NCBI GenBank assembly: GCA_963735785.1
Contig: CAVTMH010000002.1
Coordinates: 107,132-171,131, forward strand
Length of the DNA stretch: 64,000 bases
Direction: 5' to 3'
Origin: an uncultured Chloroflexia bacterium
GTDB lineage: Bacteria > Chloroflexota > Limnocylindria > Limnocylindrales > CSP1-4
Shown one piece after another: positions 7,676-64,000 of this stretch. The translations under genes and the position numbers were made by a program. Under the pieces are notes generated by a model, which was given only the letters and a program-made list of their open reading frames with translations, searched no databases and was not told where the DNA came from. Within the stretch, counting starts at the first letter, position 1, and each line of letters starts with the position of its first letter.

Positions 7676-7762
7676 CGGCTGCCGGCTCGCGAGAACCGAG
7701 GTCGCGCGACGGCGCGCCGGGAGTACTCTGACCCGACCGAGGACCGACCAGACGAGGAGGGC

Positions 7763-11028: not shown

Positions 11029-11105
11029 TGGTCGGGGCGGCCGGATTTGAACCGACGACCACCAGTCCCCCAGACTGGTGCGCTACCAGACTGCGCCACG
11101 CCCCG
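11029..11105 (-). tRNA. tRNA-Pro (anticodon GGG)
   Basis: Reverse complement folds as a canonical cloverleaf: CGGGGCG-TG-GCGC-AGTCTGGTA-GCGC-A-CCAGT-CTGGGGG-ACTGG-TGGTC-GTCGG-TTCAAAT-CCGGC-CGCCCCG-A-CCA. Seven-bp acceptor stem, TPsiC-like GTTCAAAT, encoded CCA. Confidence 0.9.
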
Positions 11106-34467: not shown

Positions 34468-34961
34468 CTGAGGATCTCCGGTGTGTGGGGCTCGGTAGGG
34501 GCGGACCCGGAGCGCCGGGTGTCGAGGGCATCTTGCAGGATGACGGCGGCCGCCTCGCGGTCGACCCGTGCCCGGTACTCGTTGCGCTGGTGGCGGGACG
34601 GCGGGCCGCCCGAGCGGCCACGCTTCATGGGGCCCAATCGCGTCTCGGCGACGTGGCTGCTCAGGCGCTCATCGTGCAGGGTGATCGCGACACGGTCGCC
34701 CAAACGGGCGCCGATGTTCCCCGCCCACGCTCTCGTGATGGCCGCCTGGGGACCTTCGTGCCCAGCGGCATCGATCGGCAGACCGATGACGAGCTCCTCG
34801 ATGTCGTGCGCCGTGATGAGTGCAAGCAGCGATGCGGCATCGAGGCCCGCGTGACGCCCGCGTCGGATGGTCGTCAGTGGCCGCGCCCCAGCGCCCGGGC
34901 CGTCCGCGATGGCGACGCCGATGCGCCGCTCCCCGAGGTCGATGCCCAGGGCCCGCGTCAT
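34464..34961 (-). CDS. ruvX: Holliday-junction resolvase-like nuclease RuvX (YqgF)
   Basis: MTRALGIDLGERRIGVAIAD.. RNase-H-like YqgF signature. ATGA overlaps at both ends. Confidence 0.85.
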   Translation of the reverse strand: MTRALGIDLGERRIGVAIADGPGAGARPLTTIRRGRHAGLDAASLLALITAHDIEELVIGLPIDAAGHEGPQAAITRAWAGNIGARLGDRVAITLHDERLSSHVAETRLGPMKRGRSGGPPSRHQRNEYRARVDREAAAVILQDALDTRRSGSAPTEPHTPEILR

Positions 34962-36967: not shown

Positions 36968-36969
36968 GA

Positions 36970-38232: not shown

Positions 38233-41006
38233 CAGCCCTCCGCGTCGATGCGGCCGAGGAGCGCGTCCCGGAGGGCGTTCCGCGCGTCCGTGAGGCCGCC
38301 GCGATCGGTGCCCATGCCCTGTGCCATCTGCGGTCGACCACCGCCCTTCGCCCCGATCGGCCCAGCGGCGGCCCTGACGAGGTCGCCGGCCCCGATCCCG
38401 CGCTCGACCAGGTCATCGGACACCGTTACGAAGACCTGCGGCGCCTCGGCGTCGAGGAACAGCGCGATGACCCCCGACGGCAGCGCGTGGCGGATCGCCT
38501 TCGCGGCGGCCTTGAGCGCGTCCATGGACTCGTACGGGATCGCGGCCGCGACGAGCCGCACGCCCGGGGCCACCTCCTCCGCCTTCGCCGCCAACTCGGT
38601 CGGCTGCGGCACCCCGGTCGCAGCCCCCGCCCTGAGTCGGCGCTTCGTGTCGCGCAACTCCTCCTGCAACGCGGCGATGCGATCTTCGACAGCCTCGATG
38701 GTCTGGGCCCCGACCGCCCCGGCGACACGGTCCAGGACTTCGCCGCGTTCACGTGCCAGCCGGTCCGCCCCGACGCCGGTGAGGGCTTCGATCCGGCGCT
38801 GGCCCGAGCCGATGCTGCGCTCGCCGGTGATGACGAAGCCGCCGACCTGGCCCGTGGCCCGGCAATGCGTCCCCCCGCACAGCTCGAAGCTGTAGTCCTC
38901 GACCCGGATGGTGCGCACGGTCTCGCCGTACTTCTCGTCGAAGAAGGCGTCCGCCCCCTGCTCGATCGCATCGGCCATCGGCATGAACGCGACCGTGACC
39001 TGGCGGTCGTCGCGGACGATGCGTCGGACCTCGTCCTCGATCGCGCGCGTCTCGTCGTCGGTCAGGGCGCGATCGAACGGGTAGTCGAAGCGGAGCGAGT
39101 CGGGCGTCACGAGCGACCCCGCCTGGCGGGCACGATCGCCGACCACGTTGCGGAGCGCCCGGTGCAGCAGGTGGGTCCCGGTGTGATTGCGCATCGTGTG
39201 CGCACGCCGCTCGGCGTCCACCACGGCCTGGACCGTCTCCCCGACGCGCACGCGACCGTGCAACGTGCCGCGCTGGACGATCAGCCCTCCGACCGGCCGC
39301 TGCGTGTCGGTCACGGTGAACAGCTCGCTGCCGCCGCCCGGTTCTCGGATCGTGCCCTGGTCCCCGACCTGGCCGCCGCCCTCCGCGTAGAACGGCGTGC
39401 GATCGAGCACGACCTCCGCCTCGCCATGGCCGGTGAGCTCGTCGAACTCCAGGCCGTCGCGCACGATGGCCACGACCCGCCCCTCGGCGGTCGTCGCCTC
39501 GTAGCCCAGGAACTCGGTGTCGCCGTGGCGCCCCTGGATCGCGCTGTACAGCGACGTCAGTTCGGCGTGACGGCTGAGCTCGGCCTTCTTGCCAGAGCGG
39601 CTGCGCTCTCGCTGTTCCGCGAGGGCATCGTGGAACCCGGCGAGATCGACGGCGCAACCGTATTCGGCGGCGAGCTCCACGGTCAGATCGACCGGAAACC
39701 CGTAGGTATCGTGGAGCCGGAACGCGACATCGCCATCGAGGACCGGCGCAGCCGCGGGCAGGTCCTCCGGCCGGCGGCCGATGACCCGGTCGGGTAAGGT
39801 CCCGCCCGCGGTCTCGCGGATCGCCTCGTCGAGGAGCCGGGACCCAGCGTCGAGGGTCCGCGCGAACTGGGCCTCCTCGCGCGCGATGGTCGAGAGGATC
39901 ACGTCGCGTTTCTCGGCCAGGTGCGGATGTGCCTCGGCCATCGTGTCGATGACGACGATCGCCGCCTCCGCCATGAACGGATCGCGCCGGCCGAGGAGCC
40001 GACCGTGACGCACGGCTCGGCGCAGGATCCGACGCAGGACGTAGCCCCTCCCTTCATTGCCAGGAAGGACGTCATCGGCGATGAGGAACGTGACGGCACG
40101 TGCGTGGTCTGCGATGACCTGGTAGCTGAAACGCTCCCCCTCGAACGTGTCCGGGTCGTGCCCGAGCAGCTCCTGCATCCGGGCGTGGATCGGCGTGAAC
40201 AGGTCGGTGTCGTAGTTGGTGGGGACCTGCTGGATGACGCTCGCAAGACGCTCGAGGCCCATGCCGGTGTCGACGCCAGGGGCGGGCAGCGGCTTCAGCG
40301 AGCCGTCCGGCTGGAGGTCGAACTCCATGAAGACCAGGTTCCAGATCTCGAGCCAGCGCGGGCACTGCTCGCTGTGGTCCGGGACGCAGTGGGGGCCCTC
40401 CGACAGGTGGGCACCGCGATCGAAGTGGATCTCGCTGCACGGCCCACACGGCCCGACGTCGGCCATGCGCCACCAGTTCTTCTCGTCACCCTTGGGGAAG
40501 TCGCCCCAGCGGGCGAGCCGGTCCGGCGGGAGGCCGATCTCGTCGCGCCAAACCTCGAAGGCGAGGTCGTCGGTGGTGTACGTCGTGGCGGCGAGCCGCT
40601 CGCCCGGTATGCCAAGGTCGCGCGTGAGGAAATCCCAGGCCCAGTGGATCGCCTCACGCTTGAAGTAGTCCCCGAAGGACCAATTGCCGAGCATCTCGAA
40701 GAATGTGTGGTGTCGGGGCGTCCGGCCGACCTCCTCGAAGTCGTTGTGCTTGCCTGCCACGCGGAGGACGCGCTGGTAATCGACTGCTCGCGTGTAGCTG
40801 CGCTTCTCAGTGCCGGTCAGGACGTCCTTGAACTGGACCATCCCCGAGTTCGTGAACAGCAGCGTCTGGTCACCAGCAGGGACGAGGCTGGCGCCGGGAA
40901 CGACCGTATGGTCACGCTCGGCGAAGAACTCGAGGAACCGCCGTCGGATCTCCGCGGACGGCAACGAACGGATCCGGGGATCCCGGGTGACGGATGGGGT
41001 CGACAT
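38232..41006 (-). CDS. alaS: Alanine--tRNA ligase
   Basis: Class II aaRS motifs, editing-domain HxxxH/CxxxH and C-terminal DHHA1. ATG 41006 (MSTPSVTRDPRIRSLPSAEIRRRFLEFF..) was chosen over the upstream Arg-rich track start. Confidence 0.9.
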   Translation of the reverse strand: MSTPSVTRDPRIRSLPSAEIRRRFLEFFAERDHTVVPGASLVPAGDQTLLFTNSGMVQFKDVLTGTEKRSYTRAVDYQRVLRVAGKHNDFEEVGRTPRHHTFFEMLGNWSFGDYFKREAIHWAWDFLTRDLGIPGERLAATTYTTDDLAFEVWRDEIGLPPDRLARWGDFPKGDEKNWWRMADVGPCGPCSEIHFDRGAHLSEGPHCVPDHSEQCPRWLEIWNLVFMEFDLQPDGSLKPLPAPGVDTGMGLERLASVIQQVPTNYDTDLFTPIHARMQELLGHDPDTFEGERFSYQVIADHARAVTFLIADDVLPGNEGRGYVLRRILRRAVRHGRLLGRRDPFMAEAAIVVIDTMAEAHPHLAEKRDVILSTIAREEAQFARTLDAGSRLLDEAIRETAGGTLPDRVIGRRPEDLPAAAPVLDGDVAFRLHDTYGFPVDLTVELAAEYGCAVDLAGFHDALAEQRERSRSGKKAELSRHAELTSLYSAIQGRHGDTEFLGYEATTAEGRVVAIVRDGLEFDELTGHGEAEVVLDRTPFYAEGGGQVGDQGTIREPGGGSELFTVTDTQRPVGGLIVQRGTLHGRVRVGETVQAVVDAERRAHTMRNHTGTHLLHRALRNVVGDRARQAGSLVTPDSLRFDYPFDRALTDDETRAIEDEVRRIVRDDRQVTVAFMPMADAIEQGADAFFDEKYGETVRTIRVEDYSFELCGGTHCRATGQVGGFVITGERSIGSGQRRIEALTGVGADRLARERGEVLDRVAGAVGAQTIEAVEDRIAALQEELRDTKRRLRAGAATGVPQPTELAAKAEEVAPGVRLVAAAIPYESMDALKAAAKAIRHALPSGVIALFLDAEAPQVFVTVSDDLVERGIGAGDLVRAAAGPIGAKGGGRPQMAQGMGTDRGGLTDARNALRDALLGRIDAEG

Positions 41007-44378: not shown

Positions 44379-46121
44379 TCAGTCGAGGGCGCGCCGCAGG
44401 AATGCCGCCATCTGGCCGCGGGTGACGCTGGCCGTCGGGCAGTACTTGCGCGTGCCGCAGCCGCCGGTCTGCCCGGCGTGGGCCAGCGCGTTGATCGAGC
44501 TCTCGCCGCTCCGGCCATCGTCGTCATCGAAGTAGTCGGTGCCGGCGGGGGCCAACGGGAGGTTCTGTTCCTTCACGAGGAAGATCGCCATCTCCTCGCG
44601 GCTCACGGAGCGCTTGGGGCAGTACAGCGTGGGGCTGCCGCAGCCGCTCGTGATGTTGGCCTCACGCAAGGCGTTGATGGCGCTCTCGCCCGACAGGCCC
44701 TCATCGTCCGTGAAGTAGTCCGTGCTGGTCGATGGATGGTTGAAGCCCCGGACGAGGAAGATCGCCATCTGCTCTCGCGTCACCGGGGACGATGGGCAGT
44801 ACCGGCCGTTGCCGCAACCGACCGTGATGCCCTCGTAGTAGATCCAATGGATCGCATCGAGGAAGCTCGAGCTGGCGATGTCCGTGAATTCCGGGGCGAT
44901 GACCCGATAGAGGGCGCCGCTGAGATCGGTCACGAACAGCTCGCCCGACTCGCTTTCCCCGAACGAGCTGATCATCAGGCCCGTGTCGCGGCGAAGCGTT
45001 TCGCCCGAGCCGTTGGCGTTCATCGTCCACAGCCGGCCGCTGCAGAAGTCGCCGTACACGTACAGCCCGCGCAGGTCCCGGTGCGAGCCGCGGTAGACGT
45101 AGCCGCCGGTGATCGAGCAGCCCAGGTTGTGCGAGTACTGCGCGACGGGGAGCGTGTCCCCGGCCAGGCTGCAGCCGCTCGACGGCTCGAAGCAGAGCGA
45201 GCCCTCCATGACGTCCCAGCCATAGTTGTTGCCGCCCGGATCGGCGGCGTCCTCGAGGTTGACCTCCTCGCGTCGCCCCTGGCCGACGTCGGCGATGTAC
45301 AGGTCGCCGGTCGCCCGGTCGAACGTGATGCGCCACGGGTTGCGGAGACCGTAGTCCCAGATCTCGTCGCGGCCCGCCGTCGCCCCCGCGAACGGGTTGT
45401 CGGCCGGGATGCTGTAGTGGTTGTGCGGCCCGGCGCCGGTGCCGTCAGGGTTGATGCGGAGGATCTTGCCGAGCAACGTGGACTTGTCCTGGCCGTTCTC
45501 GTCCGGGTCACCCGCGCCGCCACCGTCGCCCGTCGCGATATAGAGATGGTTGTCCGACCCGAACGCCAGGGCGCCACCGTTGTGGTTCGATCGGGGGTGG
45601 TCGATGGTGAGGAGGACGTACTCGGTCGTGAGGCTCGCATGCGTTCGGGCGGTGTTGGCCGTGAGCCGGGAGATCCGGAGGTCGCCGCCCGGGCGGGTGT
45701 AATAGACGTAGAGGTATCCGTTCGTCTCGAATTCCGGATGGAACGCAAGCCCGAGGAGGCCCCGCTCGCCGCCGGCCGCGATGCGCGAGCTGATATCGAG
45801 GAACGGCGAGGACTGGAGCCTCCCGCTCTTGACCACGCGCACCCGCCCACCACGCTGGACGACGAACAGGCGGTCGGACCCATCACCCGCGTGGGTGACC
45901 CCGAGCGGGCTGCTCAACCCGCCGGTGACGCGTACGACCGTCAGCTGCCCGGATCGCAGGGCGGCGGTTTCGATCGCCTCGGCGGCGGGCTTGAGGGGCG
46001 CCGCCGGTGGCGGCGGGTCGCCCGCGGCGACCGGGGCCGCGGCCGGCAGGACGGCCAACAACCCCAGCATGACCGCGACCATGGTCGCGAACGCGGATCG
46101 ACGGCGTGGACGTGAAGACAT
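44379..46121 (-). CDS. PQQ-dependent sugar (glucose/sorbosone) dehydrogenase with signal peptide and three C-terminal SLH domains
   Basis: GSDH beta-propeller motifs (RLFVVQRGGRVRVV.., GLLGLAFHPEF.., HNGGALAFGSDNHLYIATGDGG). Followed by three tandem SLH repeats (..CGNGRYCPSSPVTREQMAIFLVRGF, ..CPKRSVSREEMAIFLVKE, ..CPTASVTRGQMAAFLRRAL). Confidence 0.8.
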   Translation of the reverse strand: MSSRPRRRSAFATMVAVMLGLLAVLPAAAPVAAGDPPPPAAPLKPAAEAIETAALRSGQLTVVRVTGGLSSPLGVTHAGDGSDRLFVVQRGGRVRVVKSGRLQSSPFLDISSRIAAGGERGLLGLAFHPEFETNGYLYVYYTRPGGDLRISRLTANTARTHASLTTEYVLLTIDHPRSNHNGGALAFGSDNHLYIATGDGGGAGDPDENGQDKSTLLGKILRINPDGTGAGPHNHYSIPADNPFAGATAGRDEIWDYGLRNPWRITFDRATGDLYIADVGQGRREEVNLEDAADPGGNNYGWDVMEGSLCFEPSSGCSLAGDTLPVAQYSHNLGCSITGGYVYRGSHRDLRGLYVYGDFCSGRLWTMNANGSGETLRRDTGLMISSFGESESGELFVTDLSGALYRVIAPEFTDIASSSFLDAIHWIYYEGITVGCGNGRYCPSSPVTREQMAIFLVRGFNHPSTSTDYFTDDEGLSGESAINALREANITSGCGSPTLYCPKRSVSREEMAIFLVKEQNLPLAPAGTDYFDDDDGRSGESSINALAHAGQTGGCGTRKYCPTASVTRGQMAAFLRRALD

Positions 46122-46136
46122 GGCTGTCCCTCCGGG

Positions 46137-47426
46137 TTATGGCTCGGCGAACGCTCGGAAGAGGAAAGCGGTCATCTGACCGCGTGTGACGCTGGACGAC
46201 GGGCAGTATCGGTCGGGGCCGCAGCCCGTCGTGATCCCCGCCTCGAAGAGGCTGTCGATGGCGGCTTCGAACATGGATCCGTCGTCATCCACGAAGTGAT
46301 CAGGCTCGACCGGTGGCGGGAGTGCGAGCGCTCGCACGAGGAACGCCGCCATCTCACCACGTGTCACCGTCCGGCTCGGGCAGTACCGCCGTTCGCCACA
46401 GCCGCCGGTGATGCCGGCCTTGGCCATGCGGTTGATGCTCGCCTCGCCGGTCACACCGTTGTCGTCATCGAAGAAGTTCTGGTTCGTCGGACCCAGGTGC
46501 ATCGCGCGGTCGATGAACAGCGCCATCTGGGCGCGCGTCACCGGATTCCCCGGGCAGAACATGTCCAGGTTGCAGCCGACGGTGATGCCGTTCTCGTAGG
46601 CCCATTCGATGTGGGGCTCGAACGTGTTGCCGGAGTAGTCGGTGATGCAGCCCCGACCCGTGTTGACGACCGTGATCGAGGAGCCGCTGGAGTTGAACCG
46701 GACCCGCGTCCAGCCGCAGTCGCCGGTCTCGTCTGACTCCAGGAACCAGTCATGCGGATCGGGCATCGCGCGGACCGTGTACGTGCCGCCCGGGAGACCG
46801 GTGATGTCGATGAACTGGAACGGGAGGTTCCAGCGATACGTGTCCGCCCACCCCACGGAGATGCCCGTGCGCGAGGTCAACGCCGTCCGCCCACCGCAGC
46901 CGGACTCGCGATACACCGGACCGTTGGGAGATCGCGGGAGGCTCGGGGACCACAGGGTGGTGTCGAAGAAGCAGAACCCGATCTTGCGATCGGCCCGGGT
47001 GGCCCGGCTGGACCACAGGTGATAGACCATCATCTGCTCGACGTGCCAGTGGTTGTGGCCGTCACCCGCGAACCGCAGCGTGGCGTCCGTCGCGACACGG
47101 CGCTCCCCGCCGGCGTCGTCGTCGATGACCTGGCGGACCGTCCACGGTGACGATGCGCTGGGTCGGCGTGCGAGCACCTCGATGGGACCGGCGCCGACAT
47201 TGACCAGGATGCTCGTGAAGCGCAGTAGCCGGCGGCCGCCGGAGTTGACGATCCTGAACTGGGACGGATTGGCGGCGCGCAGGTTCGGCAGCCGATCGTC
47301 GGCAGCCACCGCCGTCGGCGCGACCCACGCCGGGGCCAGGGCGATGAGGGCGAGGGATGCGGCGAACAGGAGGCGTCGAACGGACCCGCGGCCCGTATGG
47401 CGCTTCGTCACCCCGTCACGGTACAC
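46137..47426 (-). CDS. Lysyl oxidase-like (LOX catalytic domain) copper amine oxidase with signal peptide and three C-terminal SLH domains
   Basis: Aligns block by block with the animal LOX catalytic domain. His-rich copper site GDGHNHWHVEQMMVYHL matches WEWHSCHQHYH. KIGFCFFDTT matches KASFCLEDTS. GISVGWADTYRWNLPFQFIDITGLPGGTYTV matches [31 protein letters not shown]. Three SLH repeats follow. Confidence 0.7.
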   Translation of the reverse strand: MYRDGVTKRHTGRGSVRRLLFAASLALIALAPAWVAPTAVAADDRLPNLRAANPSQFRIVNSGGRRLLRFTSILVNVGAGPIEVLARRPSASSPWTVRQVIDDDAGGERRVATDATLRFAGDGHNHWHVEQMMVYHLWSSRATRADRKIGFCFFDTTLWSPSLPRSPNGPVYRESGCGGRTALTSRTGISVGWADTYRWNLPFQFIDITGLPGGTYTVRAMPDPHDWFLESDETGDCGWTRVRFNSSGSSITVVNTGRGCITDYSGNTFEPHIEWAYENGITVGCNLDMFCPGNPVTRAQMALFIDRAMHLGPTNQNFFDDDNGVTGEASINRMAKAGITGGCGERRYCPSRTVTRGEMAAFLVRALALPPPVEPDHFVDDDGSMFEAAIDSLFEAGITTGCGPDRYCPSSSVTRGQMTAFLFRAFAEP

Positions 47427-47483
47427 GGTCGCACAACCCCGGACGCGGCCATTGCAAAGTCCGGCCCGGGTGCGACGTGAACG

Positions 47484-49495: not shown

Positions 49496-50206
49496 ATGAC
49501 CGTCGCCGCCGTGATCCTGTCTGCGACCAGCGATGGCGCGCTTGCCGACACCCTGGGCCAGCCCCGCGTCCGGCGCCTCGTGGACATCGCCTGGTCCGGC
49601 GGGGCGCTGCCGGTCGTCGTCGTCGCCCCTGACGAGAGCGGGGCCGTCCGCGCTGCGCTCGTCGGGAGCGAAGCCGTGTATGGCTCGCCCGCGCCGGTCG
49701 AGGGAGGGGCAGCCGGCCAGATGCTCCGTGGCGCGGAGCTGGCGGTCGACGAGGTCCGGGAGACGAGCGCGATCCTGATCTGGCCCGCCCGGATGACCTG
49801 GGTGGGTCCGGAGACCGTGACCTCTTTGATCGAGGCCCATGGCACGGACGTGGCCACGATGCTCCGACCGGCCTGGGACGGGAGGCCCGGTTGGCCGGTC
49901 CTCATCCCGATCGCGGCGCTCGACGCGCTCCGCAGCGTGCCGGCGGACAGCATGCCGGATGGCGTGGTGGAGGCGGTGACGGCCGTGATCGCGTCGCGTC
50001 TCGTCGAGGTCGGCGATCCCGGTGTCGTGCATGACGCCGAGACCGCTGTCGCCGACCTGCCACCGTACGAGGGCCCGCCGGACCCGCCCGCGGGTCACAC
50101 CCACGAGTGGGGCGACGGGCTCGAGGCGGAAGGGGCCGACGAGGGCGTGCCGGGCGAGGGCCGCGGGCTCGCACCATTCCCGCAGGCCGCGTCGGACGAG
50201 GGCTGA
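49496..50206 (+). CDS. MobA/MocA-like nucleotidyltransferase (NTP_transf_3) domain protein
   Basis: N-terminus MTVAAVILSATSDGALADTLG.. resembles the AVILAAGxSxRMG motif of molybdopterin-guanine/cytosine dinucleotide transferases. GAGG RBS. Its function is consistent with the Moco genes elsewhere in the window. Confidence 0.6.
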   Translation: MTVAAVILSATSDGALADTLGQPRVRRLVDIAWSGGALPVVVVAPDESGAVRAALVGSEAVYGSPAPVEGGAAGQMLRGAELAVDEVRETSAILIWPARMTWVGPETVTSLIEAHGTDVATMLRPAWDGRPGWPVLIPIAALDALRSVPADSMPDGVVEAVTAVIASRLVEVGDPGVVHDAETAVADLPPYEGPPDPPAGHTHEWGDGLEAEGADEGVPGEGRGLAPFPQAASDEG

Positions 50207-50221
50207 CAGCCGGACGGTCAG

Positions 50222-51190
50222 CTACTCGACGGCGGTGGCGACGTCGTCCCGGGCGTTCCGGATGCCATCCCGGATCCTCGCGAGCGGCACCGTGGCGAGC
50301 GCGATCCCGCCGATGACGAGCGCGACGCCGGCGAGCTGCGCGACCGAGGGCCGCTCCCCGAGCAGCACCACGCTCAATCCCACCGTCAGGACCGGCTGGA
50401 CGAGCAGGATGATCGAGGTGACGACCGCTGGGAGCCGCGGCAGTGCGAGCGAGATGCACAGGTAGCCGATCGACTGCGACGTCACCCCCAACAACGCCAG
50501 CCAGCCAAGGCTCGCGAGCGGCGGGGCGAGATCGAGATCGCCGATGACGAGCCCGGCCATCCCCGACACGACAGCCGTGCCGATGGTCGCGATGGCGACC
50601 GGTCCGGCGGGTCGTCGCGAATCGCGGCCACCGATGCGGATCAGCAGGAGGTACGCCGAGTAGCACAACGCCGTCGCGACGCCCAGCGCCACCCCGAGGG
50701 CCGGGTTCGCTCCGTAGGCACCCGATCCGACCACGCCCGAGATCAGCACGACGCCGACCAGCACCACCGGGACGGCGATGAGCGTGGCCCGCGACGGCCG
50801 CTCCCCGAAGACCAGCCACGCGACGACGCCGACGACGAGGACCTGCAGGTTGCCGAGGACCGTCGCGAGCCCGGCGCCCACGTACTCGATGGCGTGGTGC
50901 CAGAACATGAGGTCGCCCGCGAAGAAGATGCCGGCGATGACGGCGAGCCGGCGCGCGCGTCCCGGCAGCGGCCCGTACCGCCGCCGCTCGGCCCAGGCCA
51001 CCAGCACGAGCAGGGGCAGGCCGAACACGGCCCGGAAGAGCGTCCCGGTCGATGGCGAGACGTCGGCGTAGCGGTACAGGATGCCCGAGAAGGCGATGCA
51101 CAGGGCCCCGATCAGGGCGGCCAGACGGGGCCGTCGCGCGATCGCATCGAGCGCCGGGATCCCGAGATCGGCCGCCGCGCCGGCCGTCAG
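50222..51190 (-). CDS. DMT-superfamily (EamA-type) transporter, 10 TM; start codon unresolved
   Basis: Two EamA-like halves. There is no ATG/GTG/TTG in frame near the expected N-terminus. An ATG at 51252 that overlaps the aspS stop (ATGA) opens a 21-codon ORF in the -1 frame ending at 51187. Confidence 0.6.
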   Translation of the reverse strand: MTAGAAADLGIPALDAIARRPRLAALIGALCIAFSGILYRYADVSPSTGTLFRAVFGLPLLVLVAWAERRRYGPLPGRARRLAVIAGIFFAGDLMFWHHAIEYVGAGLATVLGNLQVLVVGVVAWLVFGERPSRATLIAVPVVLVGVVLISGVVGSGAYGANPALGVALGVATALCYSAYLLLIRIGGRDSRRPAGPVAIATIGTAVVSGMAGLVIGDLDLAPPLASLGWLALLGVTSQSIGYLCISLALPRLPAVVTSIILLVQPVLTVGLSVVLLGERPSVAQLAGVALVIGGIALATVPLARIRDGIRNARDDVATAVE

Positions 51191-55583: not shown

Positions 55584-56042
55584 TCAAGGCTCGATCGGTC
55601 TGTCGATGCTCTCCTCGAAGTCACGCTCGATCTCGGCGTCGAGGTCGTGAAAGCCCGAAACCATCCGAACCCGCCCCTTCAGCCGACCGAACTCACGCTT
55701 CGGCGCATCCGTGACGTCATCGACAGCCCCGAGCCAATACATCACGTCGTCGGAGGGGACCCATGTTGCCCAATCGCGGAGTAGGGCCGTCGCCTCGGCG
55801 CCGACGATATCTTGCTGGCTGGGCCCGCTGCTGCCGCCACGGTAGAGGCGAAGCCGACCCTCGCTGAGCAGATCCACCACGATCCGTTCCGCAATCGCTA
55901 GGCGCTCGCTCAGTGCCGCCGACGGGTAGCGGCTGTTGGCGGAATACCAGACTTCGTGGATTCCCAACCAGTCGTCGTGAGCGTCATCGTGGATCGAAGC
56001 CTTGAACTCTTGGTAGTCCGGCGGCAAGGAATCATTGCTCAT
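55584..56042 (-). CDS. Orphan hypothetical protein (152 aa) with atypical, lower-GC composition
   Basis: About 62% GC and A/T-ending codons (AAT, GAT, TTG, CAA) versus ~72% GC and near-exclusive G/C-ending codons in neighbours. No recognisable domain. Confidence 0.55.
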   Translation of the reverse strand: MSNDSLPPDYQEFKASIHDDAHDDWLGIHEVWYSANSRYPSAALSERLAIAERIVVDLLSEGRLRLYRGGSSGPSQQDIVGAEATALLRDWATWVPSDDVMYWLGAVDDVTDAPKREFGRLKGRVRMVSGFHDLDAEIERDFEESIDRPIEP

Positions 56043-56111: not shown

Positions 56112-58433
56112 TCAGCCGAGATCGCGCTGGACGTTGATGACGTCCTTGAGGTTCTCGATCCGGCCCATGACCCGGGCCAGCTGCGACACCGAGTGGACCT
56201 GCAGGGTCGCGGTCACGACGGCGGTGTGGTCCGGCGTCACGCCGACGGCCGCGGCGACGATGTTGACCTTGTTCTCGGCGACGACCTGGGTGATGTCGCT
56301 CAACAGCCCGGTCCGGTCGTAGGCCTCGACGCGGATCGCGATCGGGTAGGTCTGGGTCGCCTCGGCCTCCCACTCCACGTCGATGAGCCGGCTCACCTCC
56401 CGTTCGTTGACGACCGTCGGACAGGACTGGAGGTGGACGGTCACGCCCTTGCCGCGGGTGATGAATCCGACGATCGGGTCGCCAGGGATCGGCGAACAAC
56501 ACTTCGCGAAGCGGACGAGCAGGTCGCCCACGCCCTTGACCCGGACGCCCCCGGTCCGCGCGACCTGCTGCGGCGGCGCGACCGTCGGCAGCTGGCTCTG
56601 GCCGTCGTCGACCACGCCGAGGCGCATGACCACGGTCTGAGGGCCGACCGCCCCGTAGCCGATCGCGGCGTAGAAGTCGTCGGGCGTGTCGTAGTTGAGG
56701 TTCTTCGCCACCTCGGCGATCTTGTCGTGCCCTACGGCCGCGATCGTCGTGCGTGCCAGGCGGCGCAGCTCACGCTCGAGCGATTCCTTGCCGTGGACGA
56801 TGTTCTCGTCGCGGTCCTTGCGCTTGAACCACTGGCGGATCTTTTCGCGGGCATGGCTGGTGCGGACGACGTTGAGCCAGTCGCGGGACGGGCCGTGCTC
56901 GCCCTTCGTCGTCACGATCTCGACGATGTCGCCGTTCTTGAGGCGGTAGTCGAGCGGCACGAGCCGGTTGTTCACCTTCGCACCGATCGTCCGATGGCCG
57001 ACGTCGGTGTGGATGCGATAGGCGAAGTCGAGCGGCGTGGCGCCGGCGGGGAGGTCCTTGATGTCGCCCTTCGGCGTGAACACGAAGACCTGGTCCTGGA
57101 AGATGTCGAGCTTGATGCCCTCGACGAACTCGGTCGCGTCCGACTCGGAGACGTCGCGCTGCCAGTCCATGAGTTGGCGCAGCCAGGCGAGCTTGGCGTC
57201 GTACTCGCGATCGGACTTCGTGCCTTCCTTGTAGCGCCAGTGGGCCGCGATGCCGACTTCGGACACCTGGTGCATCTGGTGGGTCCGGATCTGGATCTCG
57301 AGCGGCTTGCCGTCGATGGCGATGACCGCCGTGTGGAGCGACTGGTAGAGGTTGTTCTTGGGGACCGCGATGTAGTCGTCGAACTGCCCAGGGATCGGCC
57401 GCCAGATGCTGTGGACGATGCCGAGCGCCGCGTAGCAGTCGCGCACGTCCTCGACGAGCAGGCGGATGGCGTAGACGTCGTAGATCTCGCCGAACTCCGC
57501 GCTCTTGCGCTGCATCTTCTTCCAGATGCTGTAGATGTGCTTGGGTCGTCCCTGCAGGTCGGCCTCGATGCCGGCCGCCTCGAGGCGCGGCTTGAGCTCC
57601 GCGATGGCGCGGTCGATGTACGACTCGCGGCCCTTGCGCCGGGTGTCGAGGAGCTTGGCCAGCTCGCGGAACCGCTCGGGCTCGAGTGCCTTGAACGCGA
57701 GGTCCTCGAGCTCCCACTTCATCTGCCAGATCCCGAGCCGCTCCGCGAGCGGCGCGTAGATCTCCATCGTCTGGCGGGCGATGCGCTGCTGCTTGTCGGA
57801 CGGCAGCCCGTAGAGGGTGCGCATGTTGTGGAGCCGGTCGGCGAGCTTGATCAGGACGACCCGGATGTCCTGGGCCATCGCCAGCAGCATCTTGCGGATG
57901 TTCTCGGCCTGCTGCTGCTCGTGGCTGTGGGTGCTGAACCGGGACAGCTTCGTCACGCCATCGACGAGCTGGGCGACCTCGGCGCCGAAGCGCTCCTCGA
58001 TGTCGGTCAGGCTGTACTCGGTGTCCTCGGGGACGTCGTGCAGGAGCGCGGCCTGGACGGCGACCGGATCGATGCCGAGCTCGGCCAGGATCTGGGCCGA
58101 CGCGATGGGGTGCGTGACGTACGTCTCCCCGGTCGCCCGGCGCTGGCCGGCATGGGCTTCGACCGCCAGATCGAACGCCCCGTCGACGACCGCCAGGTCA
58201 GTGGTCTGGTGATGCTCCGCGATCGAGGCCTTGAGCGCGTTGCGCAGGACCTCGAGATCGACCTTGCCACCTGGCGACGCGCTCGACAGGGACTGGCTCC
58301 GGCGCGGGCCACGGCGCGTCGTCGACGTCGCTCGCGCGGGCTTCTCCGCGACGACAGCGGGCGTCTCAACGGCGGCCGGCTTCTCGACGACAGCCGGCTT
58401 CCGGGTCTTGGAACGTGGCGAGGTGGCGGCCAT
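56112..58433 (-). CDS. relA: Bifunctional (p)ppGpp synthetase/hydrolase RelA/SpoT
   Basis: HD hydrolase domain (HD..), synthetase domain, and TGS and ACT domains. ATG 58433 (MAATSPRSKTRKPAV..) was chosen over the upstream track start. Confidence 0.9.
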   Translation of the reverse strand: MAATSPRSKTRKPAVVEKPAAVETPAVVAEKPARATSTTRRGPRRSQSLSSASPGGKVDLEVLRNALKASIAEHHQTTDLAVVDGAFDLAVEAHAGQRRATGETYVTHPIASAQILAELGIDPVAVQAALLHDVPEDTEYSLTDIEERFGAEVAQLVDGVTKLSRFSTHSHEQQQAENIRKMLLAMAQDIRVVLIKLADRLHNMRTLYGLPSDKQQRIARQTMEIYAPLAERLGIWQMKWELEDLAFKALEPERFRELAKLLDTRRKGRESYIDRAIAELKPRLEAAGIEADLQGRPKHIYSIWKKMQRKSAEFGEIYDVYAIRLLVEDVRDCYAALGIVHSIWRPIPGQFDDYIAVPKNNLYQSLHTAVIAIDGKPLEIQIRTHQMHQVSEVGIAAHWRYKEGTKSDREYDAKLAWLRQLMDWQRDVSESDATEFVEGIKLDIFQDQVFVFTPKGDIKDLPAGATPLDFAYRIHTDVGHRTIGAKVNNRLVPLDYRLKNGDIVEIVTTKGEHGPSRDWLNVVRTSHAREKIRQWFKRKDRDENIVHGKESLERELRRLARTTIAAVGHDKIAEVAKNLNYDTPDDFYAAIGYGAVGPQTVVMRLGVVDDGQSQLPTVAPPQQVARTGGVRVKGVGDLLVRFAKCCSPIPGDPIVGFITRGKGVTVHLQSCPTVVNEREVSRLIDVEWEAEATQTYPIAIRVEAYDRTGLLSDITQVVAENKVNIVAAAVGVTPDHTAVVTATLQVHSVSQLARVMGRIENLKDVINVQRDLG

Positions 58434-58488
58434 GGCCCGAAAGGATAGCAGCGGGTCCCGCCCGATCAGGGTCGCCGGACGTCCCGGG

Positions 58489-60108
58489 TCAGCCCCCGTA
58501 CCCGAGTTCGGCGAGCAATTCCAGCGCCGTCGCCCGTTCATCCCACGCTCGTTCGCCGTCCGGTCCGATGATCGAGCGCTCGTGGCCCTTGCCGGCCAGC
58601 AGGACGATGTCACCGGGTCGAGCGGCCTCGAACGCGGCCGCGATGGCCGCCCGGCGATCCGCGATGAGCTGCAGGTCCCCCCCACGCCGCCGACCGGCCG
58701 CCTCGGCGCCCCGCGCGATCTCGTCGAGGATGGCGTCGCGATCCTCGCCGCGCGGATCCTCGTCGGTGACGACCACGAGGCGGGCCCGCTCGCCGGCGAT
58801 CCGGCCCATCTGGGGGCGCTTGGCGGTGTCGCGTTCCCCGGCCGATCCGAAGACGGCGATCAACCCGCCGCCCCGCGCCGCGGCTGCGGGTGCCAGCAGG
58901 TCGAGGACCATCTGGAGCGAGGCCGGGCTGTGGGCGAAGTCGACGATCACGCCGAACGGCTGGCCGGCATCGACCCGCTCCATCCGGCCGGGAACGCCCT
59001 CGACGGAGGCAAGGCCCTCGCGCACGGCGGCCGGATCCAGGGCCAGGACCTCACCGAGGGCGACGACCGCCAGGGCGTTGTGCACGTTGAACCGCCCGGC
59101 CAGTCGGAGCCCGAGCGTCCCCGCGCCGCCGGGCGCCTCGATGTCCGCTCGGAGACCGCCCGCGTCCTCCGTGATGCGTGTCGCGCGGACATCGGCCGCG
59201 GTCTCGGTGCCATAGGTCACGACCGTCGCGCCGGCGTCGCGGGCCGTGCCGATGAACACTCCGGCGGATGGGTCGTCGACGTTGACGATGGCCGCCGGAG
59301 CGATCGGCCGCGGCTTGCTGACGTCCCGCGCGGCGCGCAGGCGCTCGAACAGCGACAGCTTGGCGTCGCGGTAGGCCTCCCACGTCCCGTGCAGCTCCAG
59401 GTGCTCATGGGTGAGGTTGGTCAGGATCGCGACGTCGTAGGCCACGCTCGACACGCGGTCGAGGGCGAGCCCGTGCGAGGTCGTCTCGACGATCGCGACG
59501 TCGTCGCCGGCGTCGACCATCGCGCGCAGCGTCGCCTGCAGCTCGGGTGCCTCGGGCGTGGTCGCATGCGCTTCGTGGGCCTCGGTCCGCCCGCCGACCC
59601 GGGTCGCGATCGTGCCGATCATCCCGGCGCGCAGGCCCGCGGCCTCGAGGGCTGCGACCGCGAGATACGCCGTGGTGGTCTTGCCGTCCGTGCCGGTGAT
59701 CCCGACGACCGTGAGCTCGTTCGAGGGATCGCCGAACCACCAGGCCGCCGCGCTGGCGAGGGCCGGGCGGGTGGCATCGACGACGAGTTGCGCGGCGGCC
59801 ACCTCGGGGAGTGGCCGCTCCACGATCAGGGCGGTCGCGCCCTGGGTTACGGCCGCGGCCGCGAACTCGTGACCGTCGACCCGACCACCGGGGATGGCCA
59901 CGAACAGGCTCCCCGGGACCGCGTTCCGCGAATCGTGCGTCACCCCGGTCACCTCGACGTCGGCGAGTGCGGCACTGCCGACGGCACGGCCATCGACCCG
60001 TGTACCGCGAAGCCGTCCCTCCGCACCGAGACGGCCGACGAGCTCGCCGAGGGGGCGGGGTGGGCGGGAACCGGTCGGATCGGGGAAGGCCCCCTCGGGG
60101 GCGCTCAT
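58489..60108 (-). CDS. murE: UDP-N-acetylmuramoyl-L-alanyl-D-glutamate--diamino acid ligase MurE, with DEDPR in place of the DNPR motif
   Basis: MurE N-domain (..VTGVTHDSRNAVPGSLFVAIPGGRVDGHEF..), P-loop GITGTDGKTTT, ..TNLTHEHLELHG.., and C-terminal ..VVVTDEDPRGEDRD... ATG 60108 overlaps the femAB-2 stop (ATGA). Confidence 0.85.
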   Translation of the reverse strand: MSAPEGAFPDPTGSRPPRPLGELVGRLGAEGRLRGTRVDGRAVGSAALADVEVTGVTHDSRNAVPGSLFVAIPGGRVDGHEFAAAAVTQGATALIVERPLPEVAAAQLVVDATRPALASAAAWWFGDPSNELTVVGITGTDGKTTTAYLAVAALEAAGLRAGMIGTIATRVGGRTEAHEAHATTPEAPELQATLRAMVDAGDDVAIVETTSHGLALDRVSSVAYDVAILTNLTHEHLELHGTWEAYRDAKLSLFERLRAARDVSKPRPIAPAAIVNVDDPSAGVFIGTARDAGATVVTYGTETAADVRATRITEDAGGLRADIEAPGGAGTLGLRLAGRFNVHNALAVVALGEVLALDPAAVREGLASVEGVPGRMERVDAGQPFGVIVDFAHSPASLQMVLDLLAPAAAARGGGLIAVFGSAGERDTAKRPQMGRIAGERARLVVVTDEDPRGEDRDAILDEIARGAEAAGRRRGGDLQLIADRRAAIAAAFEAARPGDIVLLAGKGHERSIIGPDGERAWDERATALELLAELGYGG

Positions 60109-61201
60109 CGGCCAACGAGCCTGGCGGCGCGTGACACGACGCGCCCCGCGGCGTAGCGCCACGGCCGGAACACGCGTTCCTGCGCGCCGGTCATCTCGAC
60201 CCAGCTCGCACCGAACGAGCGCTTGTGCTCGTACAGCCCGGCCATCGGATCGCCCGTGGCGGGTTCCGCGTGGTCCGGGGCCACGTCCACGCCCCCGAGG
60301 TCCATCTCCGTTCGACCCTCACGGATCGCGAGCTGGATGGCTCTCCAGCGCAGCAGGTGCATGACCCCCGGGTTCGTGTCGCGGACGCCCGGGGGATCGC
60401 CCGAGTGGACCGTGGACAGCCGCTCCCCGTGGCGATACAGGATCAGGCCGCCGAGCGCCCGTCCCGGATCGGAGCTGCTCGCGAGCCTCGAGGTAGACAA
60501 GGAGCCCGGCGGCATGGGCCGCGGTCCACCAGTCGAGAAACACCTGGCGTGGCCCGAAGCGGAACCCGCGCCGCTGTCCCGTCCCCTCGAGCAAGGTCGC
60601 GAACCCGCCGAGGACCGCATCGAGCGGCTGCGACGGTTGTTCGAACAGTGGCTGACCGCCTTCCCAGCCCGCGCTGTCATAACGGTGGACGACCACGCCG
60701 TCCGTCTCCGCCGCGCTGAGCCGCTGACGCGTGCTCTTCGAGAAGCCGGCTCGCACCGCGTCGTCGTCGGCATCGGGGGCAAGGGCGAGGCTGACCCGAT
60801 GGCGGGAGGGCTGGATCTCGGGGATCGGTCGGAACCCGGCGTCGTGCAGCGCCCGGCCGTAGGCGGGCCTGGTCGGCGGGCACCTCCGCATCCGTCGCGA
60901 GGACGGCCACCCCACGACCCGCCAGCCACGCCCCGAGCTCGGCGACACGACTGCCGGCAGCCGAAGGATCCTCGCCGGGCGCGACGATCGGACCGCGCGG
61001 GGAGTAGGCGCTCGCTCCACCGATCAAGGGGAAGGGACGGAGCAGGACGAGCGCACCATGCTCCGGACCGAGCACTACATGGAGCGGCCGCCAGCCGAGA
61101 CGTCGTCGCTGCTCGGCCCAGGTCCGGGACTGATAGACGTGCCCGCCGGGGGCGTGGACGGTCCGTTGATCCCAGTCGGCGAGCTCGGCGTCTGTGGCCA
61201 C
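60105..61201 (-). pseudogene. Second FemAB-family (FemX-like aminoacyl-tRNA-dependent peptidoglycan branch) gene with two +1 frameshifts
   Basis: GTG 61201 lies 12 nt after the femAB-1 stop. The N-terminal third (..LADWDQRTVHAPGGHVYQSRTWAEQRRRLGWRPLHVV..) is in one frame. The middle (..GRALHDAGFRPIPEIQPSRHRVSLALAPDADDD..) and the C-terminal third (..GGLILYRHGERLSTVHSGD...VEMTGAQERVFRPWRY..) are each in a different frame. All three align with the intact paralogue. Shifts lie near 60868 and 60471. Confidence 0.65.
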
Positions 61202-61212
61202 GCGCGGTGCGC

Positions 61213-62268
61213 TCACTCCGCGCCCTCCGCGCTGCCGAACGCCGATGCGTTCCCGCCGCCGACGCCATGTCTCCGTCGCGCCCACCAGACACGCGCCCGA
61301 CCCGCGCCCTCGTAGACGGAACGGCCGATCGGGTCCAGCACGAGGTCCCACGCCCCGATGTAGCGAACCTCGCGCCCGCCGAAGCCGGTCTTGAAATGGG
61401 CGATGCCACCGGTCGCGAGGCCCCACAGGTCGTAGCTCGTGGCGCCGCCCTCGCGTGACGACCGGATCGCCTCCCACTTGAGGAGGTAATTGGCCCGGTT
61501 CTCGGCGCCGGCCTGGGTCATGCCGCCGTACGGCTCCACGACGCGGGGCCCGCAGCGGACCAGGAACAGCGTCGCGAGCGGGTCGCCAGCGGCCGACTGC
61601 GCGAAGAGCAGCCGTGCGCGACCGGCCGGTCGATATGCTTCCCACACGTCCCGATAGGCGCCCTCCGTGCGGATCAGGAAGCCGGCGCGGTCCGCCGTGT
61701 CGCGGTAGATCCGGTAGAACTCCCCCAGCCGGTCGCCGTCGGCGTCAACGACGACCACGCCGGCCGACCTCGCCTTGTTCACGTACTGGCGCCATTTCTT
61801 GCGCAGGTCACCCCACAGGGCGTCCTCGTCGGGGCCGAGGTCGATGACCCTCGTCGAGGCCGGCTGGATCGGCGGCGCGGGGCGCCAGCCGGCTGCGCCC
61901 AGGGCGCGGCGCAGGGACCCGTCGGCGTCGTGCGGCCCGTCGAGCTCGATCTCGGGGTCGATCCGGACGTGCGAGACGCGTCCGGCGGCAGGTGGCAGGT
62001 CGGTCCGGATACGCTCGGTGACGTCACCGATCTCCTGCTCCGACCAGGCGCGCGCCACCGGACCACGGGGTGCGTACGCGAAGCCCCACGGCAAGGGGGA
62101 CGGCCGGCGCACGAGGATCTGCGCCCCGATGCCGTCACCGGTGATCCGGTGGGCGGCCCAGCCGTTGACCGCCTTGACCTTGGCCCAACCCGTCAGTTGG
62201 AGGTACGAGCCCGGGTCGCTCGACTCGACGAAGGCGTCCCAGTCACTCGCCTCGGAGGATGCGGTCAC
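61213..62268 (-). CDS. FemAB-family peptidoglycan interpeptide-bridge aminoacyltransferase (intact)
   Basis: 351 aa. FemAB-type tandem GNAT-like pattern (..YLQLTGWAKVK.., ..FLVRCGPRVVEPYGGMTQAGAENRANYLLKWEAIRSSREGGATSYDLWG..). ATGA overlap with the murJ stop. Confidence 0.8.
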   Translation of the reverse strand: MTASSEASDWDAFVESSDPGSYLQLTGWAKVKAVNGWAAHRITGDGIGAQILVRRPSPLPWGFAYAPRGPVARAWSEQEIGDVTERIRTDLPPAAGRVSHVRIDPEIELDGPHDADGSLRRALGAAGWRPAPPIQPASTRVIDLGPDEDALWGDLRKKWRQYVNKARSAGVVVVDADGDRLGEFYRIYRDTADRAGFLIRTEGAYRDVWEAYRPAGRARLLFAQSAAGDPLATLFLVRCGPRVVEPYGGMTQAGAENRANYLLKWEAIRSSREGGATSYDLWGLATGGIAHFKTGFGGREVRYIGAWDLVLDPIGRSVYEGAGRARVWWARRRHGVGGGNASAFGSAEGAE

Positions 62269-63854
62269 GATCGGCGCGGGCGGCGGAGCGCGTCGACCAT
62301 GATCTCGACGATAGAGCGCAATTCCTCGATCCGCAAGGCGAGCGCGGTCACGACGAAGACACCGCCGTAGGCTGCAGCGACGATCAGGATGACGCCGATG
62401 AGACCGGGGACCTGGTCGAACCCACCAACGCTCGGGTCGGGCGCAAGAACGGGACCGACCACCCCATGGACGAGGACGGCCGCGAGCCCGGCGAGGGCGG
62501 TCGCGAGCACCGTGCGCAGCCCCAGCCAGGCCACGGCCGCGAATCCCAGTCGGCCGACCCGCCGGCGCAGCAGGACCAGCAGGATCGTGGCCTCGATCCA
62601 GGCGGCCAGCGCGATGGCCAGCGCGAGCCCGGGCAGGCCGAGGCGACCGACCAGCGCCAGCGCGATCGTCGTGTTGATGACGACGGCCAGGACCGCGGCG
62701 GCGACTGGTGTCCGCGTGTCATGGAGCGCGTAGAACCCACGCGCCAGCACGGCGATCAGGGCATGCGCGACCAGGCCGACCAGGAAGGCGAGGAGCGTGT
62801 CGGCCGTGAGCTCGATCGTCGCGCGGTCGAAGCGGCCGAACAGCACGGCGATGGTCTCGACCCGCAGGATCGCGCCCAGGACCGCGATCGGCAGCATCAC
62901 GAAGGACAGGAAGCGCAGGGCCCGGGTCAGCAGGGCGACGAACTCGCGATGGTTGCCACTCGCGACCTCCCGCGACAGCGACGGCAGCAGCACGACGGCA
63001 AGCGGGACGCCGATGACCCCGACCGGGATCTGCAGGAGCGTGAAGGCGATGGTGAACGCCGTCACGGCCCCGACCCCGACACCGGTCGCGAGGGCGGTCA
63101 TCACGAGGAACGTGATCTGTGTCGCGCCCAGCCCGACCGCCCGCGGGATCATCAGTCCGATCGCCCGGCGCGCGGCGCTGTCGGCCAGGTCGATGATCGG
63201 TTCGTAGCGGAAGCCGATGGCCCGCAGCGGCGCCAGCTGGACGAGGACGTGCCCCAGCGACCCGAGGACGACCCCGATCGCCAGCCCGACGGCCCCCATC
63301 GTGGGGGCCAGGGTGAACGCTGCAGCGATGATCGCGAGGTTGTAGACGCTCGGGGCGACCGCTGCGGCGGCGAACCGGCCGCGTGCGTTCAACACGCTCG
63401 TCCCGACCGACCCGAGCGCCAGCAGGATCGGGCTCAGGACCATGATCCGTGTGAGCTCGATCGTGCGACTCATGGTCGGCGCGTCGAACCCGCCAGTGAA
63501 GGCGGGCACGATGACGTCCGCTCCGACGAGCACGATCAGCCCCAGGATGGCCAGCCCGATGAGCATGAGGTTCGTGACCGTCGAGACGATGCGCCACGCG
63601 CGCCGCTCGCCGTCGGTCTCGAAGACGCTTGCAAGGACCGGGATGAGCGCCGACGACAGGGCGCCTGCCGCCACCAGCTGGAACATCAGGTCCGGGATCC
63701 GGAACGCGGCGAAGAAGGCGTCGAGCTCGGCGGTGGCGCTGGCGTCGAACGTGTTCGCGATGACCACCAGGCGCAGCCAACCCAGCACCCGCGACACGAG
63801 GAACGCGCCCGAGACGATCAGCCCGGCCCGGGCCAGGGTCCGTGCCGCGGTCAC
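62265..63854 (-). CDS. murJ: Lipid II flippase MurJ (MviN)
   Basis: 529 aa, ~14 TM, MurJ N-terminal pattern (..[43 protein letters not shown]..). GTG 63854 overlaps the upstream xerC TGA. Confidence 0.85.
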
Positions 63855-64000
63855 GCGCCGACTCCCCGGCGAGCGCGCGGGTGGGCCGCACGGTAGGCCG
63901 CGGCCAGGCGCCCCGGTGAGACGTGCGTGTAGACCTGGGTCGTCGCGAGGTTCTCGTGGCCAAGCAACTCCTGGACGACACGCAGGTCGGCGCCGCCGTC
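63851..64000 (-). CDS. xerC: Tyrosine recombinase XerC/XerD-type, C-terminal ~49 codons only (gene continues beyond window end)
   Basis: ..[41 protein letters not shown] is the catalytic Tyr region. It is nearly identical at nucleotide level to the corresponding part of xerD at 21630-21710. Confidence 0.6.

Follow-up and report, generated by a model that had tools for sequence, protein, structure and literature searches.

A conserved murJ-fem-fem-murE gene neighbourhood suggests a bridged, probably diaminopimelate-free peptidoglycan in Candidatus Limnocylindria

Introduction

Two-enzyme Fem systems that build a dipeptide branch are known from Streptococcus pneumoniae (MurM/MurN) and Enterococcus faecalis (BppA1/BppA2), and the murE genes of Escherichia coli and Mycobacterium tuberculosis sit in the dcw cluster. 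Here we describe a region (58489-63854, minus strand, coding throughout) of a 64,000-nucleotide stretch of contig CAVTMH010000002.1, the whole of which is referred to as the window, in which genes for the lipid II flippase MurJ, two FemAB-family aminoacyl transferases (fem1 and fem2) and the Mur ligase MurE follow one another with overlapping ends. The source of the window is an uncultured bacterium of the Chloroflexota class Candidatus Limnocylindria (Ellin6529/RIF-CHLX). We consider it probable that the region represents the standard gene set of this lineage for the synthesis and export of a branched peptidoglycan precursor, in which the third residue would most likely be L-ornithine (L-Orn) and the bridge would be Fem-built and of A3 type.

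The Asn2 and Arg4 residues of the DNPR motif of MurE hydrogen-bond the distal carboxylate of diaminopimelate (DAP), and the L-lysine (L-Lys)-adding MurE of Staphylococcus aureus reads DNPA instead (PMC3829189). The MurE of Thermotoga maritima adds L- and D-lysine (PMC9434261, PMC3829189), reads DDPR and serves a lysine wall, although DAP is accepted in vitro (PMC9434261); with this non-DAP organism, an acidic position 2 combined with a retained Arg therefore has a precedent. Within the Chloroflexota, the wall hydrolysate of Sphaerobacter thermophilus contains Glu:Orn:Ala:beta-Ala and has been typed A3-beta with L-Orn (PMC3035262), and a review assigns ornithine, not DAP, to the Chloroflexi (PMC1586193). 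No motif rule for ornithine specificity of MurE was found in the literature searched.

Results

MurE carries EDPR at the position of DNPR

The identities and coordinates that an earlier sequence-only reading of the window had given to murJ, the two fem genes and murE are confirmed by domain and equivalog scores and by the translations (Table 1). The MurE protein is 100% identical to database protein P0001. Its nearest solved structures are the plant MurE-like protein 8w9z and M. tuberculosis MurE 2wtz, and its P-loop (GITGTDGKTTT), the ...YRDAK... segment and AGKGHE all align to 2wtz. The top-scoring PDB entry is non-bacterial (8w9z chain N, E value of 2.8e-87), a plant plastid MurE-like protein of the plastid-encoded (PEP) RNA polymerase complex, whose motif reads DNPK.

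In the sequence-only reading the motif was given as DEDPR instead of DNPR. The departure from DNPR holds, but the register had to be shifted: lvvvTDEDPRgedrdai of the window MurE pairs without gaps with lvvvTDDNPRdedptai of 2wtz (TDDNPR is also found in 8g6p), and as every column of TDEDPR is matched by one of TDDNPR, the motif is EDPR. Compared with DNPR, Glu stands in place of Asp1 and Asp in place of Asn2, whereas Arg4 is unchanged. The DNPR motif of meso-DAP-adding MurE (EC 6.3.2.13) is hence absent. The features of L-Lys-adding MurE (EC 6.3.2.7) are not found either: the Arg is retained, there is no D(D/N)P(N/A), and on the model of L-Lys ligases, NF010628, the protein reaches 255.5 where 536 is required. 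The NCBIfam DAP-ligase equivalog models give a mixed result, with NF001126 passed (418.9 versus 373) and NF001124 (427 versus 476) and NF001123 (311.6 versus 586) below their cutoffs.

EDPR is widespread among Chloroflexota MurE proteins

All 120 close homologues of the window MurE contain TDEDPR. Of 80 related Limnocylindria loci, about 75 have EDPR, including proteins with as little as 48% identity, and the others read DDSR or DDPR. Both homologues and loci come from metagenome-assembled genomes (MAGs), which bear the name Candidatus Limnocylindria or Limnocylindrales or the broader one of Chloroflexota or Chloroflexia. Of the best 150 representatives of 50%-identity clusters (1.84 billion proteins in total), EDPR is read in about a third and DNPR in about 40%, and EDPR occurs in 117 of the 119 members of a set centred on Thermomicrobiales MurE. 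Named carriers include MAGs of Chloroflexia, Chloroflexales, Caldilineae and Anaerolineae, as well as the type strain S. thermophilus DSM 20745, whose MurE (ACZ38659.1/WP_012871706.1) reads TSEDPR; two Thermomicrobiales MAG entries carry the annotation 'L-ornithine ligase'. EDPR is a lineage trait typical of Chloroflexota and not a peculiarity of the window, so that the motif loses the unusual character first ascribed to it.

In a neighbour-joining tree built from 122 full-length proteins of the cluster survey, one split separates the 51 EDPR proteins, all of which lie with the window MurE, from the 47 DNPR proteins, all of which lie opposite. The MurE of S. thermophilus lies on the window side, as do a few DDPR and DDPY proteins. 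Variation at further pocket-adjacent positions follows that of the motif (GSAGERD versus GCGGDRD, GKGHE-SI versus GKGHE-YQ and W522 versus F). The window MurE thus groups with an EDPR clade that includes S. thermophilus, apart from the DNPR proteins, and not firmly with meso-DAP enzymes, the outcome that the sequence-only reading had named as contrary to a variant stem peptide.

These data bear on two other assignments of the third residue. MurE might add a DAP isomer (meso-DAP, or LL-DAP as in the Streptomyces-type A3-gamma wall), whose amino group the Fem proteins would then branch. Arg4 of the motif, with which the DAP carboxylate pairs, is indeed conserved, as are what we take, by our own residue count, to be the equivalents of Arg389 and Glu468 (E. 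coli MurE numbering), and the DAP-ligase equivalog NF001126 is passed with 418.9 against 373, whereas the L-Lys model falls far short, as given above. However, the other carboxylate ligand, Asn2, is now an acidic Asp, the NCBIfam models were presumably trained regardless of the motif, and MurE stands apart from all 47 DNPR representatives and beside the enzyme of S. thermophilus, whose wall contains Orn and no DAP (PMC3035262). A DAP isomer consequently appears improbable.

Alternatively, position 3 could be L-Lys, with the remaining pathway unchanged. T. maritima combines a DDPR motif (Asp at position 2, Arg kept) with a lysine wall (PMC9434261), and the selectivity of S. aureus MurE is set by pocket charge and substrate pools, not by the motif alone (PMC3829189). 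The cultured Chloroflexota that have been analysed nevertheless carry Orn (PMC3035262, PMC1586193), and position 1 is Glu throughout the EDPR clade, where a side chain longer by one methylene may suit a substrate shorter by one methylene. We judge L-Lys to be equally improbable, and L-Orn remains the preferred third residue.

The gene neighbourhood is conserved across the class

The class Limnocylindria, also named Ellin6529 or RIF-CHLX, is uncultured and of high G+C content (PMC10608941; bioRxiv 10.1101/2021.08.23.457424). The locus was compared with the related loci from MAGs, the nearest genome (L001/L003, on a 1.57 Mb contig) sharing 95.6% DNA identity with the window over 7.9 kb. The complete order topA-xerC-murJ-fem1-fem2-murE-relA is found in 46 of 81 loci, and the others are truncated contigs or variants with a fem gene on the opposite side of murE. 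In every locus with flanks, murJ, at least two fem genes and murE are present, down to 47% MurE identity. Between the proteins encoded by fem1 and fem2 identity is only 25-30%, yet each is conserved class-wide. Gene content and order vary in places: a few loci have a third fem gene or a second murJ, among them L052, with a tandem murJ copy and three fem genes, and L026, with a third fem gene after murE, and the deep-branching group (L065-L075) has the order fem-murE-fem.

As the sequence-only reading had proposed, start and stop codons overlap and the genes lie downstream of a xerC-type gene. Every junction within murJ-fem1-fem2-murE is a 4-nt stop/start overlap (GTGA, GTGA and ATGA), and the TGA of xerC overlaps the GTG of murJ in the same manner (GTGA). 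Upstream this pattern carries on into xerC and topA, and downstream, going by the annotation of the relative, it reaches relA. No promoter-like site was found in a promoter scan of the region, and on the minus strand a weak 5-bp stem immediately after murE is all that resembles a terminator; with two terminator-like sites in all, the region has no more than shuffled sequences. A dedicated tRNA or regulatory RNA inside the cluster was considered and discarded, the lone RNA gene of the window being a tRNA-Pro (11029-11105). The cluster genes may be co-transcribed. The four genes are embedded in an overlap-linked array with those of topoisomerase I, XerC and RelA; murJ-fem-fem-murE is a conserved functional neighbourhood within this longer co-directional array and probably not a separate operon, and the dedicated operon of the sequence-only reading is not supported. 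Its proposal of a position-3 residue other than meso-DAP together with a Fem-built A3-type bridge, by contrast, gains support from the clustering of EDPR proteins with the L-Orn, A3-beta organism S. thermophilus and from the adjacency of murJ, fem and murE, kept in about 80 genomes.

The murE gene has no dcw neighbours; it is flanked by fem2 and relA, and about 40 Pfam-scanned open reading frames (ORFs) of the 64 kb gave no further Mur ligase or MraY. The murE genes of S. thermophilus and of a Chloroflexia MAG likewise stand alone outside the dcw cluster, the former within 10 kb of aspS and murJ, and in another Chloroflexota MAG, again outside dcw, murE overlaps a FemAB gene by four bases. The location outside dcw, correctly noticed before, is therefore normal for Chloroflexota and not unusual.

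Two divergent FemAB-family proteins

Fem1, repaired Fem2 and the Fem2 of L001 all exceed the gathering cutoff of PF02388 (101.8, 35.6 and 39.8, respectively, against 24), whereas the unrepaired Fem2 fragments of the window score 17.3, below it. The best PDB matches of Fem1 are S. aureus FemX 6snr (1e-21) and Weissella FemX 4ii9/1ne9 (6e-12), and the ratio of non-synonymous to synonymous divergence (dN/dS) of fem1 relative to L001 is 0.12. Fem2 is more remote, its phmmer comparison with the Firmicute enzymes reaching an E value of 3e-4 at best. Both proteins keep the C-terminal Lys (...HFKTGFG in Fem1 and ...EHKRSFG in Fem2 versus ...AFKKVWG in S. aureus FemX), a residue of the FK motif that we take, from the work on Weissella FemX, to be catalytic. 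Fem1 is a short form, and its alignment skips residues ~233-303 of S. aureus FemX, which form the coiled-coil insert. Weissella FemX acts on the nucleotide precursor; as Fem1 is similarly short, the Fem step could, speculatively, be cytoplasmic.

By these similarities and the conserved adjacency to murE and murJ, Fem1 and Fem2 are putative aminoacyl transferases of a peptidoglycan precursor. They could conversely act off peptidoglycan, as exopolysaccharide/PEP-CTERM-type FemAB proteins or other GNAT-fold acyltransferases, with the adjacency to murE and murJ being incidental. Fem1 does match TIGR03019 (XrtA/PEP-CTERM-associated FemAB) with 46.9 bits and reaches only 55.8 bits on the FemX equivalog NF047883 (cutoff 500), and overlapping genes are common in this compact genome. 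Both scores are, however, far under their cutoffs, the closest structural relatives by sequence are the FemX proteins of S. aureus and Weissella, the adjacency is held class-wide even where gene order is shuffled, and the 4-nt fem-murE overlap recurs in the unrelated Chloroflexota MAG. A role outside peptidoglycan is thus very improbable, and a function on the precursor is retained below.

The frame breaks of fem2

The sequence-only reading had one fem gene frameshifted. The gene is indeed broken, into three segments in three frames, as seen by tblastn with fem1 and the L001 orthologue; the cause is a pair of +1 insertions (Table 1), probably sequence errors. Over 7.9 kb, the DNA alignment with L001 is interrupted exactly twice, each time by a single extra window base in fem2, and deletion of both bases yields a stop-free ORF of 369 codons. 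Relative to L001, the repaired fem2 has a dN/dS of 0.17, and since this value lies between those of fem1 and murE (0.21), the gene has been under purifying selection essentially until the present. Programmed frameshifting was rejected, as fem2 is intact and read in one frame in clean assemblies of related loci.

A second gene of the window is broken in the same way. A housekeeping gene of Xaa-Pro aminopeptidase type (31240-32849, minus strand; Creatinase_N and Peptidase_M24), 28 kb away and found by a frame scan of G+C at third codon positions (GC3), matches the M24 profile at 2-105, 108-175 and 172-204 across three overlapping ORFs; the frame is lost near 32220 and again near 32000. General assembly noise was dismissed as a source of the fem2 breaks: about 35 other genes of the window have full-length Pfam domain coverage, and the GC3 scan added just this one doubly broken gene, so that errors in the window look local and not pervasive. 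In five related loci from long-read-style MAGs (L028, L029, L076, L078 and L081), nearly every gene (topA, xerC, murJ, fem, murE and relA) shows frame breaks, a sign that some assemblies of the lineage are rich in indel errors.

The other explanation is that fem2 is a genuine, very recent pseudogene of this strain, which would leave one working Fem protein and a bridge one residue shorter than that of its relatives. The two insertions do not compensate each other, they are the sole indels relative to a 95.6%-identical genome, the second lies outside any homopolymer, and the other genes are covered in full; the frameshifts could therefore be real. Yet the dN/dS of the repaired gene reveals no replacement excess, removal of one base at each site restores the whole frame, the peptidase-type gene shows the same double break, and fem2 is kept in every related locus with enough flank. 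A pseudogene is accordingly unlikely, though less so than the other alternatives considered here; local errors of the assembly consensus are the likely cause of the breaks, and fem2 is probably functional in the organism.

Layout of the locus and other features of the window

The positions of the genes are collected in Table 1. The visible end of the recombinase matches residues 302-348 of the L001 XerC (350 aa; PF00589 and PF02899) with 98% identity. MurJ is 98% identical to its L001 orthologue (dN/dS 0.07) and RelA 100% identical; relA is the next gene of the conserved array and lies outside cell-wall function.

Table 1. Genes and sequence features at the murJ-fem-fem-murE locus (window coordinates)
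Feature	Position	Strand	Remarks
xerC-type tyrosine recombinase gene, 3' end	63851..64000	-	cut by window end; last 48 residues visible
murJ, lipid II flippase, 529 aa	62265..63854	-	PF03023 293 bits; TIGR01695 equivalog 326.6 versus cutoff 235.55
fem1, FemAB/FemX-family aminoacyl transferase, 351 aa	61213..62268	-	PF02388 101.8 bits
fem2, second, divergent FemAB-family gene	60105..61216	-	two 1-nt insertions; L001 orthologue 369 aa
first extra base in fem2, C	60867	-	CAGGCCCGCC in window versus CAAA-CCGCC in relative
second extra base in fem2, G	60480	-	CGCGAGC in window versus CGC-AGC in relative
murE, 539 aa counted from ATG	58489..60108	-	PF01225, PF08245 and PF02875; TIGR01085 467.8 bits versus cutoff 257.3
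TDEDPR of MurE, residues 448-453	58750..58767	-	from the translation; DNPR position, binds third amino acid
relA/spoT-type (p)ppGpp synthetase/hydrolase	56112..58541	-	HD_4, RelA_SpoT, TGS and ACT domains

Divergence from L001 is uneven along the array. The relA segment (window 56112-58600 versus L001 11568-14010) has ~99% DNA and 100% protein identity with a synonymous divergence (dS) of 0.05, compared with 86-98% identity per 200-nt window (mostly 93-96%) and a dS of 0.12-0.19 for murJ-fem-fem-murE, a contrast that could reflect a recombination tract or very uneven constraint. The interval between relA and hisS is a small variable islet, which holds a PhdYeFM antitoxin/PIN toxin pair in L001 (14078-14703) and a 152-aa ORF with no Pfam match in the window (55584-56042, minus strand). 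L001 also has a 337-aa gene devoid of Pfam domains (19132-20145) between an EamA transporter gene and an NTP_transf_3 gene, which is absent at window ~50206-50222.

Two adjacent genes for secreted-type SLH proteins (44379-46136 and 46137-47483, minus strand) encode fusions, one to a glucose/sorbosone dehydrogenase and the other to a lysyl-oxidase domain, the latter to our knowledge uncommon in bacteria, and a third ORF (7406-8629, plus strand) has a weak SLH match. The sequence-only reading had linked such SLH-anchored proteins to the wall type; the proteins exist, but they say little about the peptidoglycan chemotype. The window contains one complete Xer-type gene besides the 3' end in Table 1, a tyrosine recombinase gene (21630-22556, minus strand; PF00589 and PF02899) directly downstream of recN. 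A large ORF (34958-37342, minus strand; ~650-790 aa) with good coding signal and a weak GlxA beta-barrel match lies between a RuvX gene and an FtsA/MreB-like gene (36970-38412).

Discussion

A non-DAP, bridged peptidoglycan, most likely with L-Orn, is supported by homology. In the pathway that we propose, MurE of the EDPR class would add the third residue, most likely L-Orn, possibly L-Lys, and in any case probably not meso-DAP. Fem1 and Fem2, presumably dependent on aminoacyl-tRNA, would in turn attach to the free omega-amino group a short side chain, probably of two residues. MurJ would flip the finished branched lipid II, and transpeptidases would use the branch as an interpeptide bridge, giving an A3-type wall. 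Within this scheme the substrate of MurE and the residues added by the Fem proteins are deduced from the genes.

Several points weigh against the proposal. The MurE protein passes the NCBIfam DAP-ligase equivalog, and all source annotations name a DAP ligase. Because the enzyme keeps the Arg that contacts the DAP carboxylate, and T. maritima MurE accepts meso-DAP in vitro, a DAP isomer keeps the small probability given to it above. The tree carries no bootstrap support and spans the 150 best cluster representatives, with E. coli and M. tuberculosis MurE themselves lying outside it. The link from EDPR to L-Orn consists of one cultured organism identified here and the phylum literature, and for the Limnocylindria, an uncultured class, the chemotype is read from genes. 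Finally, the bridge chemistry is not transferable from S. thermophilus, since its bridge is beta-alanine and no fem gene stands beside its murE.

A bolder version, which we put forward only tentatively, is that EDPR and the co-varying GSAGERD, GKGHE-SI and W522 form the signature of an L-Orn-specific MurE, and that the Limnocylindria have a class-wide, dipeptide-bridged L-Orn wall (Thermus/Deinococcus-like A3-beta), with two Fem paralogues translationally coupled to murE and murJ. Should the signature hold, the wall chemotype of uncultured Chloroflexota would be readable from sequence. For a widespread soil and freshwater class that has no cultured member, the proposal makes a testable prediction, namely a non-DAP wall, probably with L-Orn, and a short Fem-built bridge. 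The chemotype bears on lysozyme and antibiotic sensitivity, on innate-immune sensing and on cultivation strategy. The analysis also exposes an annotation problem: automatic pipelines give all these enzymes the name 'diaminopimelate ligase', even though they lack a conserved DAP-binding motif, and such annotations across the Chloroflexota are probably wrong. The novelty is modest, as the enzymes and the pathway are of known kinds and the motif is a phylum trait; no new type of system is described.

Comparison with known systems

The MurE proteins of E. coli (1e8c) and M. tuberculosis (2wtz), which add meso-DAP, share with the window enzyme the three-domain Mur ligase architecture and the P-loop. 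With 2wtz, the position of the carbamylated Lys (...YRDAK... in the window versus ...YFEAK...) and GKGHE are also aligned. Both differ from the window MurE in reading DNPR where it reads EDPR. The MurE of T. maritima (4bub; match of 7e-70) resembles it more closely at the motif, with Asn2 replaced by Asp and Arg4 kept, and the wall of that organism, like the one proposed here, is devoid of DAP (PMC9434261, PMC3829189). It differs in having Asp at position 1 (Glu in the window), in belonging to a different clade and in the absence of a Fem-type branch.

The Fem proteins have their counterparts in Firmicutes. Like MurM/MurN, BppA1/BppA2 and FemX/A/B of S. aureus, Fem1 and Fem2 are distinct FemAB-family paralogues, here encoded side by side; they belong to PF02388, and their C-terminal (F/H)K Lys aligns with that of S. 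aureus FemX. In contrast to these systems, the window proteins are encoded by genes overlap-linked to murE and murJ, their acceptor is probably L-Orn and not L-Lys, and their similarity to the Firmicute enzymes is low (phmmer 1e-21 for Fem1 and 3e-4 for Fem2). FemX of Weissella viridescens (1ne9, 4ii9), aligned over residues 10-313 of Fem1, is similarly a short form of ~335-350 aa that lacks the staphylococcal coiled-coil arm, although the similarity is weak (E value of 6e-12) and the FemX equivalog score is far below cutoff.

The closest cultured parallel is S. thermophilus DSM 20745, whose MurE shares the EDPR motif (TSEDPR), the side of the tree and the location of its gene outside dcw. Its bridge is beta-alanine, which is not tRNA-borne (PMC3035262), and no fem gene accompanies its murE, whereas murE of the Limnocylindria is overlap-linked with two fem genes.

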